Of a DNA stretch of 64,000 bases, positions 1,658 through 2,153 are shown piece after piece. A program made the position numbers and the translations under genes. The notes beneath the pieces were generated by a model. That model was not told where the DNA came from. It was given only the letters and a program-made list of their open reading frames with translations, and did not search any database. The number at the start of each line of letters is the position of its first letter. Positions within the stretch are counted from its first letter, which is position 1. The DNA comes from Acidobacteriota bacterium (GTDB lineage Bacteria; Acidobacteriota; Blastocatellia; UBA7656). The stretch is from NCBI GenBank assembly GCA_040754075.1, contig JBFMDH010000001.1, forward strand, positions 166,262 to 230,261, in the 5' to 3' direction.

Positions 1658-1692
1658 CAGTAGGCAGCCGGCAGTAGGCAGCAGGCAGTAGA
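1658..1692. repeat. Heptanucleotide tandem array (TAGGCAG-like, about 5 units), left arm of an inverted pair
   Basis: cagtaggcagccggcagtaggcagcaggcagtag read directly; reverse complement of the array at 2123..2153. Confidence 0.8.
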
Positions 1693-1728
1693 CAATTTCA
1701 TTTTTGAGTTTATTGTTTCTTACCATTT

Positions 1729-2088
1729 CTACCTTTGAAGAGAATTAGAAAGCCCGTTAATTGAACGACCAATTTCTGATGTAAGCACGATTATGTTTTG
1801 TGAAGCCTGTGGCGGCAAATAACCGAGCCTTTCAGCTATCAGTATTTGCGTTTCGACTTCGCGCAGAGAACCATAAGCGATGGAGAGAAAGTGTGCAAAC
1901 TCTCCAGCAGACTTGCGTCCTTGCCCCTCCGCAATATTAGACGGAATAGATATGGCTGCTCTGCGAAGTTGGCTAGTTAATCCATAAATCTCTTCTTTGG
2001 GAAAATTCTTCGTCTCAGAATAAACTGCTTCAACTAAATCCATAGCTTTTTGCCAGACTATTAAATCTCTGTAATTCTGACTTGCCAT
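1729..2088 (-). CDS. Four-helix bundle protein (TIGR02436 / 23S rRNA intervening-sequence protein family)
   Basis: 119 aa; motifs WQKAMDL, PKEE.YGLTSQLRRAAISIPSNIAEG and the C-terminal helical region typical of this family; flanked by inverted heptamer arrays. Confidence 0.8.
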   Translation of the reverse strand: MASQNYRDLIVWQKAMDLVEAVYSETKNFPKEEIYGLTSQLRRAAISIPSNIAEGQGRKSAGEFAHFLSIAYGSLREVETQILIAERLGYLPPQASQNIIVLTSEIGRSINGLSNSLQR

Positions 2089-2122
2089 ATTGATTGAAAG
2101 TTTTAATAAACCAAAAATAAAA

Positions 2123-2153
2123 CTGCCTACTGCTTACTGCCTACTGCCTACTA
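2123..2153. repeat. Heptanucleotide tandem array (CCTACTG x4), right arm of inverted pair; overlaps the asd stop codon
   Basis: ctgcctactgcttactgcctactgcctacta read directly. Confidence 0.8.

Follow-up and report, generated by a model that had tools for sequence, protein, structure and literature searches.

The window analysed here is a stretch of 64,000 nucleotides (64 kb) from an Acidobacteriota bacterium of the Blastocatellia type (contig JBFMDH010000001.1, positions 166,262 to 230,261), and its element of interest is a gene for a 119-aa four-helix-bundle (4HB) protein of the PF05635 family, which lies between asd and lysC and is bracketed by inverted arrays of tandem heptamers. This unit is probably a resident hairpin cassette of the type known from 23S rRNA intervening sequences (IVSs), lodged in this case in the spacer of a protein-coding operon. 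The package of gene and inverted heptamer arms is a property of the PF05635 family that is found in many phyla and in true 23S IVSs, and the arms are co-inherited with the 4HB gene. New here are an IVS-type cassette outside of rRNA and a general association between gene and repeat. Two puzzles about 30 years old are involved, namely the 23S rRNA IVSs that carry an open reading frame (ORF; 1993) and the tandem heptamer repeats of cyanobacteria and further bacteria (1990). The data tie both together through one small gene type that sits inside inverted heptamer arrays in rRNA, operon spacers and plasmids of many phyla.

The cassette between asd and lysC

On the minus strand, the order of transcription is asd, (TAGGCAG)x4, the 119-aa 4HB gene, (CTACTGC)x5 and lysC (Table 1). 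The first-pass annotation of this DNA had described a TIGR02436-like gene between lysC and asd, inverted heptamer arrays on both sides of it and an asd stop codon at one array, and these features are all borne out: the gene product matches PF05635 and TIGR02436, and the TAG of asd runs directly into the first heptamer. Its description needs correcting only in the order, which in the sense of transcription goes from asd through the 4HB gene to lysC. Tandem Repeats Finder identified period-7 arrays on either side of the gene, at 2122..2152 (4.4 copies, 91% matches, plus-strand unit ACTGCCT) and at 1658..1691 (plus-strand unit CAGTAGG), and these two arrays span 4.4-4.9 copies. The 3' arm is followed by AATCT (5 nt) and then by the ATG of lysC. 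Both arrays are intergenic, like the short tandemly repeated repetitive (STRR) sequences of cyanobacteria, and lie between a stop codon and a start codon. A two-unit heptamer pattern with two or fewer mismatches is matched nine times in the window, where chance alone predicts 0.02 matches; seven of the nine are within the two cassette arrays and two are at 60526..60546.

The cassette is compositionally foreign to its flanking genes, with a GC content of 42% in the 4HB gene against 51-54% and a third-position GC content of 35% against 57-60%. A metagenome-assembled genome of Acidobacteriota has an annotated protein with 100% identity to the asd product. The 64 kb contain no PF05635 ORF other than the 4HB gene, and no further 4HB remnants were identified within the window. 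No rRNA or other Rfam match is present anywhere in the window, and the cassette is not inside a 23S rRNA gene. A scan of the sequence for promoters and terminators gave counts at chance level.

The 4HB protein matches PF05635 over the complete profile (E-value 1e-40, 138.7 bits against a cut-off of 33.8, residues 7-112 over profile positions 1-106 of 106), TIGR02436 (5.8e-39, 132.7 bits, cut-off 24) and NF008911 (150.2 bits, cut-off 137). Its best relative of solved structure is chain A of 2GSC, the XCC0516 protein of Xanthomonas campestris (3.8e-28, residues 5-119), a four-helix-bundle fold that assembles as a pentamer and to which the window protein is related by sequence similarity alone. 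A conserved motif of the family is GxxRxxxSxxxNxxE (PMC3936711), and the window protein contains QLRRAAISIPSNIAEG, which fits RxxxSxxxNxxE on a conserved polar helix face. No match to an HUH or Y1 transposase was found in Pfam or NCBIfam for the bracketed gene, which matches the PF05635 and TIGR02436 family only.

The RNA of 1640..2170 folds with a closing stem of approximately 58 bp (minimum free energy -169.5 kcal/mol, z = -6.1). The outer part of this stem is formed by the inverted heptamer arrays and the inner part by an A/T-rich inverted repeat, with the 4HB gene in the loop. A closing helix of 46 pairs is common to three orthologous cassettes, those of the window and of L003 and L004 (numbers with "L", such as L001, L003 and L086, denote loci of other genomes compared with the window). 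Within this helix there are two compensatory pairs and 12 one-sided changes that preserve pairing, despite a synonymous divergence (dS) of 0.8-1.7, and the inner stem exhibits a compensatory change from A-U to G-C among the three orthologues (alignment columns 42/462).

In L086, L135 and L159, the asd stop codon and the lysC start codon overlap, and other relatives have a gap of 5-10 nt (tblastn coordinates). The empty site of L086 reads 'gat TAATG ata' where the window has 'gat TAG[495 nt]ATG ata'. Set against the ancestral asd|lysC junction, the cassette is an insertion that is positioned exactly at the coupling point, and no target-site duplication is seen between the filled site of the window and the empty site of L086. 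Cassettes with the CAGTAGG/CCTACTG unit around the 4HB gene are found at this junction also in L003 (89% identity in asd) and L004 (85%), and a decayed remnant that has kept the (ACTGCCT)4 arm is present in L103 (81%), where the 5' arm and approximately 70 codons are deleted. The carriers group together on the asd tree, in a clade of four made up of two pairs, the window with L003 and L004 with L001; of these, L001 no longer has the gene. In the comparison of the window with L003, the 4HB gene has a dS of 0.79, close to the values for asd (0.85) and lysC (0.81), which indicates that the cassette is an old, vertically inherited resident and not a recent arrival. The 4HB gene has a dN/dS of 0.06-0.14, and these values (about 0.1) indicate purifying selection on the protein.

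The junction comparison proposed by the first-pass annotation yields a TAATG empty site, carriers that are clustered on the asd tree and a dS equal to that of the flanks. The mobile cassette that this annotation had suggested stands with respect to insertion at an ancestral junction and recurrence across phyla; it does not stand with respect to recent mobility at this site, a target-site duplication or a recombinase. In L001, a gene-less hairpin of reversed polarity is found at 6054..6152 (5' arm TTACTGG, 3' arm CCAGTAA). Its 5' arm resembles the 3' arm of the cassette (CTACTGC); once the gene was lost, the hairpin may have formed anew out of a remaining 3' arm.

Association of the gene with heptamer arms across phyla

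The 119-aa protein was scanned against one genome per species and 80 loci with 55-81% identity were kept, none of them from the genome of the window itself; the counts below are over 82 loci, which include the window and L003. These loci span Acidobacteriota, Planctomycetota, Chloroflexota, Chlorobium, Clostridia, Verrucomicrobiota, Spirochaetes, Chromatiaceae and Nitrosomonas. A gene was scored as bracketed when the inverted-repeat score between the 220 nt upstream and the 220 nt downstream was at least 30. By this measure, 62 of the 82 4HB loci are bracketed (76%) compared to 3 of 113 other genes in those loci (2.7%; odds ratio 114, p = 3e-29), with a median arm of 32 nt. The arms are almost always heptameric, with a period-7 self-identity of at least 0.7 in 49 of 62 and values mostly at or below 0.4 for other periods. 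Heptamer arrays have a density of 2.44/kb within 250 nt of a 4HB gene and of 0.13/kb elsewhere, a 19-fold difference.

The heptamer unit itself is variable, with at least 28 distinct units among the 62 bracketed loci (31 by another counting), and identical units are found in different phyla. At the three variable positions of the unit, an arm matches its own partner at 2.79 of 3 compared to 1.15 of 3 when shuffled (maximum 1.48 in 2000 shuffles). Unit similarity and protein identity are correlated across loci (Spearman -0.235, permutation p = 0.001). In 61 of the 62 loci, the arms follow (C/T)(A/G)GT+NNN when read inward from each end. Since a perfect inverted repeat reads alike on both strands, this polarity is intrinsic to the arms and not relative to the direction of transcription. 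The sole reversed locus is L077, which has an ACTG-type arm upstream. In 64 of 78 loci, the 4HB gene and the gene upstream of it have the same orientation (p = 9e-9). The median distance from the stop codon of that upstream gene to the start of the 5' arm is 3 nt, and the GC content of the 4HB gene is below that of its flanks in 94% of loci. Pairs from different phyla reach 81% identity, as for L045 (Spirochaetaceae) and L082 (Geopsychrobacter). No rRNA context was identified in the ten 4HB loci with weak coding neighbours.

The same architecture recurs in unrelated operons and in rRNA (cas6|cas4, nrdB|nrdA, accB, 23S rRNA). Among the finished plasmids of cultured strains that were compared, seven loci are given in Table 1, two of which have the 4HB gene in a cas operon. 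A survey counted 23S_rRNA_IVP genes in cas loci as possibly Cas-associated (PMC3936711). The arm-flanked 4HB genes in the cas operons of Table 1 look like a promiscuous arm-bracketed cassette rather than a Cas-associated gene.

The link to the 23S IVS family, which the first-pass annotation had raised, is supported by the presence of the package in true IVSs of Azospirillum and Coxiella. Locus L176 of Azospirillum lipoferum is a real 23S IVS (large subunit rRNA match of 1120 bits) with (CAGAGGA/CGGATGA)n at 649-681, a complementary array at 1084-1116 and a fold of z = -11. The Coxiella IVS, which RNase III excises at the first repeat, has a 28-bp terminal stem with three to four GACAGAT heptamers, the number of which varies among strains (PMC4990558). 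ORF-bearing 23S IVSs (S23p of Coxiella burnetii, Leptospira, Azospirillum) thus resemble the window cassette in having a PF05635 ORF in the loop of an inverted-repeat stem, tandem heptamers in the arms and an ORF oriented as the host transcript. The window cassette differs in its host site, which is the asd|lysC operon spacer and not helix 9, 25 or 45 of the 23S rRNA, and in that its ORF is under clear purifying selection whereas the Coxiella ORF is reported as decaying.

Heptamer repeats are known from the literature as cyanobacterial STRRs, as TAACTGA in Beggiatoaceae, as inverted pairs of GGGAATC in Xanthomonas and from Geobacter. In Xanthomonas, approximately 70 inverted heptamer-array pairs are located in intergenic regions, and that work treats the repeats as G-quadruplex-forming simple repeats, unconnected to XCC0516 or its family (PMC4692102). 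A GGGAATC array overlaps the annotated start of XCC0516, which adjoins accB (supplement of PMC4692102). This closest solved relative resembles the window gene in having a heptamer array beside it, but no partner array is listed on its other side. The STRRs share tandem intergenic heptamers with the window, and arrays on plasmids of Nostoc, Calothrix and Anabaena flank 4HB genes in inverted pairs; STRRs are however described as dispersed direct arrays used for fingerprinting in heterocystous cyanobacteria, whereas the host here is an acidobacterium. The open-access papers on STRRs mention neither an associated gene nor a hairpin role. In the open-access literature, heptamer repeats, rRNA IVSs, Avd and the 23S_rRNA_IVP genes of cas loci are treated as four separate subjects. 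No general link between PF05635 genes and inverted heptamer arrays around them was found there, and an earlier description elsewhere is possible.

Two further systems are comparable in part. REPIN-RAYT systems also have a gene flanked by inverted repeat copies and the repeat also occurs as gene-less intergenic hairpins, but the window gene encodes a small helical bundle and not an HUH/Y1 transposase, and its repeats are tandem heptamers with a site-variable unit and not one conserved palindrome. The Avd proteins of diversity-generating retroelements belong to a family with a homologous four-helix-bundle fold, but the window protein scores below the cut-offs of the Avd profiles (PF22296, E-value 1.2e-8, 35.8 bits against 40; NF033474, 4.5e-7, 30.1 bits against 80). 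The context also differs, since Avd is encoded in a retroelement with a reverse transcriptase and template and variable repeats, neither of which accompanies the window gene, and the neighbours here are asd and lysC. An integron cassette (7-nt core GTTRRRY) was considered and rejected, as there is no attC-like single site and no integrase, and the arrays are on both sides of the gene.

Proposed mode of persistence and alternative readings

If the unit is an IVS-type hairpin cassette, it would be transcribed within the asd-lysC message, where the arms would pair into at least 30 bp of double-stranded RNA and the stem would set the asd stop codon beside the lysC start codon, preserving their coupling. 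By analogy with the Coxiella IVS, the stem (approximately 46-58 bp) is probably a substrate of RNase III, and cutting would release a 4HB mRNA with its ends still clamped by the inner stem. The tandem build of the arms would allow them to re-pair in shifted registers and to be re-homogenised by slippage, so that they could stay complementary while the unit drifts.

Several observations weigh against this reading. RNase III excision has been shown for the rRNA copies only. The leader of the window 4HB gene has no obvious ribosome-binding site in its 16 nt, whereas the leader in many other loci carries GGAG or AGGAG. No bracket is detectable in 20 of the 82 4HB loci. Heptamer hairpins that lack the gene and are built of other units are common both in the window and at the junction of relatives, so that some properties of the arms may be generic to the host. 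Arm mismatches on the sense strand show no bias toward G.U (74 of G.U type, 64 of A.C type, p = 0.44), so complementarity could be maintained at the DNA level. Finally, the cassette encodes no recombinase and no mechanism of copying or moving is visible in it; any movement would therefore need factors supplied in trans.

A more general proposal, offered tentatively, is that PF05635 genes and inverted heptamer arrays constitute one widespread and unrecognised class of selfish, hairpin-bracketed cassettes. The 23S IVSs would then be copies that landed in rRNA, many intergenic heptamer arrays (STRR, GGGAATC and the gene-less hairpins of the window) would be miniature or decayed derivatives, and the protein would be a partner that binds or maintains the heptamer hairpins. 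Should the link between gene and arrays be functional, it would provide a testable role for thousands of genes annotated as "four helix bundle protein" and would explain their presence inside unrelated operons, including the cas operons in which they have been read as Cas-associated. It would also offer a simple model for insertion between translationally coupled genes without breaking them.

Among the alternatives, a mobile element acting at the DNA level is possible, though it is doubtful. The arrays would be terminal inverted repeats for a recombinase or transposase encoded elsewhere, the gene-less hairpins would be reduced derivatives resembling miniature inverted-repeat transposable elements, and the 4HB gene would be cargo or an accessory. 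The intrinsic inward polarity of the arms in 61 of 62 loci fits this reading, as do the presence of the cassette in some close relatives and its absence in others, the cross-phylum identity of up to 81% and the reduced GC content of the gene in 94% of loci. A gene-less copy with cassette termini within the same 64 kb (60430..60545) and the recent gain or loss of a gene-less hairpin between L086 and L092 are also consistent with it. Against it are the lack of a target-site duplication between filled and empty site, the lack of a transposase in or beside the cassettes, whose only ORF is the 119-aa helical bundle, and the equal dS of the window cassette and its flanking genes. The arm units also differ widely between copies (at least 28 units in 62 loci), unlike what a single enzyme with a common recognition site would suggest. 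A DNA-level element and an RNA-level role are not mutually exclusive.

Rather unlikely, on present evidence, is a protein-repeat system in which the 4HB protein would bind heptamer duplexes or hairpins, those of its own arms and perhaps gene-less ones too, and would regulate, protect or propagate them, by analogy with RAYTs and REPIN hairpins or with Avd and its retroelement RNA and reverse transcriptase. Avd binds the reverse transcriptase and nucleic acid. As an accessory protein that acts alongside the reverse transcriptase, this homologue is essential for retrohoming (PMC10053308). The family-wide physical link of gene and arrays argues for such a system, as do the conserved polar helix face RxxxSxxxNxxE of the window protein and the retention of one unit, CAGTAGG/CCTACTG, by the window, L003, L004 and the remnant in L103 even though synonymous divergence is saturated. 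The binding step is nonetheless putative, the window has one 4HB gene in 64 kb alongside approximately eight hairpins of unrelated units, and the correlation between unit and protein is modest and explicable by shared descent. The readings of a DNA-level mobile element and of a protein that binds the repeat may both hold.

It is improbable that the co-location is incidental, with heptamer hairpins generic to the spacers of this lineage, in the manner of cyanobacterial STRR or Xanthomonas GGGAATC arrays, and the 4HB gene inside one of them by chance. The inverted heptamer pairs without a 4HB gene at five sites of the window, together with single arrays, are in favour of this, and the asd|lysC spacer of relatives carries gene-less heptamer hairpins of many units. 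In addition, L086 and L092 are 96% identical in asd yet differ by a 163-nt gene-less hairpin, and paired inverted heptamer arrays had already been described in Xanthomonas (PMC4692102). Chance co-location does not account for the bracketing of 76% of 4HB genes compared to 2.7% of control genes, the 19-fold array density within 250 nt of 4HB genes, the correlation of unit with protein identity or the identical units in different phyla. Like arms are also borne by the rRNA IVSs, and rRNA helices are not operon spacers. The first-pass annotation had named the occurrence of arrays irrespective of the gene as an argument against its proposal, and this was found in part, at seven or more other intergenic sites of the window and in the gene-less hairpins at the junction of relatives. 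The gene-array link survives only because of the family-wide statistics.

An attenuator or terminator of lysC in the lysine pathway, with the small ORF as leader or regulator, is most improbable: lysC is often under leader-RNA regulation and the element is directly upstream of it, but there is no terminator-like site or U-tract after the stem, promoter and terminator counts are at chance and the window has no Rfam match, homologues exhibit like architecture in unrelated operons (cas6|cas4, nrdB|nrdA, accB, 23S rRNA) and relatives function with a TAATG overlap at the site. This reading and that of incidental co-location are both poorly supported.

Heptamer hairpins without the gene and other repeats

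Table 1. Features of the window (positions 1 to 64,000) and inverted-array loci of 4HB genes on plasmids
Feature	Position	Strand	Details
asd, aspartate-semialdehyde dehydrogenase	2151..3203	-	Upstream cistron; matches to PF01118 and PF02774
asd stop codon	2151..2153	-	TAG
5' arm	2123..2153	-	asd TAG, then TAGGCAG TAGGCAG TAAGCAG TAGGCAG; read from sequence
Inner 5' stem half	2105..2122	-	TTTTATTTTTGGTTTATT; non-heptameric; pairs with 1692..1714
Leader of 4HB gene	2089..2104	-	16 nt from stem to ATG; without clear Shine-Dalgarno sequence
4HB gene, 119 aa	1729..2088	-	Profile matches PF05635, TIGR02436, NF008911; contains RRAAISIPSNIAE
Inner 3' stem half	1692..1714	-	AATAAACTCAAAAATGAAATTGT; pairs with 2105..2122
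3' arm	1658..1691	-	CTACTGC CTGCTGC CTACTGC CGGCTGC CTACTG; pairs with 5' arm in RNA fold
lysC, aspartate kinase	252..1652	-	Downstream cistron; matches to PF00696 and PF22468; ATG at 1650..1652
Inverted ATTGCGG/CCGCAAT pair	11382/11523 (site 11382..11547)		nuoA|nuoB; encloses 120 nt non-coding
Inverted ATTGCGG/CCGCAAT pair	27364/28280 (site 27364..28311)		Adjoins serS; encloses ~890 nt with 207-aa ORF
Compact gene-less hairpin	33640..33721 (33640/33679)		Units TGGTCAT/TGACAAA
Compact gene-less hairpin	36433..36498 (36433/36473)		Units ATGAGTG/CTCATTA
Compact gene-less hairpin	39645..39713 (39645/39682)		Units GTCCGTA/GACTCCA
Single array	25489..25534		Unit TTTTAAC; no obvious inverted partner
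Single array	49067..49091		Unit ATTTTTA; no obvious inverted partner
Single array	55857..55882		Unit CGGTAGC; no obvious inverted partner; overlaps end of 1108-aa ORF 52551..55877
Gene-less hairpin with cassette termini	60430..60545	+	Between aroA and HIT-family gene; loop ~52 nt
Nostoc edaphicum, L168			Arms (GAGTAGG)8 / (CCCTACT)5
Nostoc sp. C052, L170			Arms (GGGAACA)4 / (TGTTCCC)7
Calothrix brevissima, L171			Arms (GGGTGTA)4 / (TACACCC)4
Geminocystis sp., L174			Inverted heptamers
Anabaena sp. 90 pANA02, L169			Inverted heptamers; 4HB gene between cas6 and cas4, type I-D CRISPR operon
Pseudanabaena galeata pPg_01, L173			Heptamers; 4HB gene between cas6 and cas4
Gemmatirosa kalamazoonensis plasmid 1, L175			Octamer, not heptamer, arms AGGGCAGG / CTCCTGCC

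The first-pass annotation had suggested a search for other copies with the same termini, and one was identified in the 64-kb window, although it is gene-less. In this hairpin at 60430..60545, a degenerate CAGTAGG-type array (TAGTCGGCAACCGGCAACAGGCGATAGGCAGTT) forms the 5' arm and ACTGTCTGCTGTCTACTGCCTACTGCCTACT forms the 3' arm. Alignment of the 3' ends of hairpin and cassette, inner non-repeat bases included, gives a score of 48 against a shuffle maximum of 23, and the RNA fold of the hairpin has a z of -4.0.

In approximately 30 relatives with asd 77-86% identical, the asd|lysC spacer is filled by heptamer hairpins of varied units, GC-rich palindromes, 10-mer hairpins or nothing. A gene-less heptamer hairpin of 163-169 nt is present in L091 and L092 (163 nt in L092) and absent from L086, with 94.5-95.9% nucleotide identity in asd, and the last four codons of asd are replaced between them (GMLD-TAA against GFIE-TAG). 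This difference is a recent gain or loss in which the end of asd was rewritten too. Taken together, the varied fillers and the difference between L086 and L092 indicate that heptamer hairpins are, by themselves, a feature of intercistronic spacers in this lineage and turn over fast.

The spacers of L104 and L107 (258 and 270 nt) contain two hairpin copies built on a repeat of approximately 10 nt (CCACAGATGAACACAGATGAAC...GTGTTCATCTGTGG). Between the two copies, the final ~90 nt of asd are present a second time, stop codon included, which looks like an insertion carrying or duplicating the asd 3' end. A GC-rich, REP-like palindromic element (GGGCGGCCCTCCGTGGCCGCCCC...GGGGCGGCCACGGAGGGCCGCCC) is found at asd|lysC in L085, L087, L089, L098, L102 and L141. 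The asd|lysC coupling point is a hot spot at which hairpins of several kinds, unrelated to each other, occur.

The three compact hairpins at 33640, 36433 and 39645 have co-directional neighbours and fill the spacer from stop to start, with arms 12-14 nt apart. The right arms of the two ATTGCGG sites share a near-identical stretch of 27 nt (CAATCCGCATTTCGCAATCCGCAATTG), and the interiors of these two sites have no sequence in common. The ATTGCGG unit also flanks a divergent 4HB-like ORF in L059 (1297..1716).

The 207-aa ORF between ATTGCGG arrays (27493..28116, minus strand) was considered as a second type of cargo and rejected. Its homologues lack flanking arrays (scores 22-26), so the link of ORF and array is not systematic there. 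The gene product has a GIY...Y.G-like motif and a sub-threshold Pfam match to GIY-YIG (E-value 0.035), and its small family of 17 proteins occurs in Blastocatellia-type genomes, where the genomic context differs from one genome to the next. The ORF may represent a mobile nuclease gene which inserted by chance into the loop of a hairpin.

Other tandem repeats of 2-2.6 copies are located at 13560..13622 (24 nt), 23605..23665 (24 nt) and 61086..61137 (26 nt). Of these, the two 24-nt repeats fall within ORFs, whereas the 26-nt repeat is close to the 3' end of a 563-aa ORF (61149..62840).

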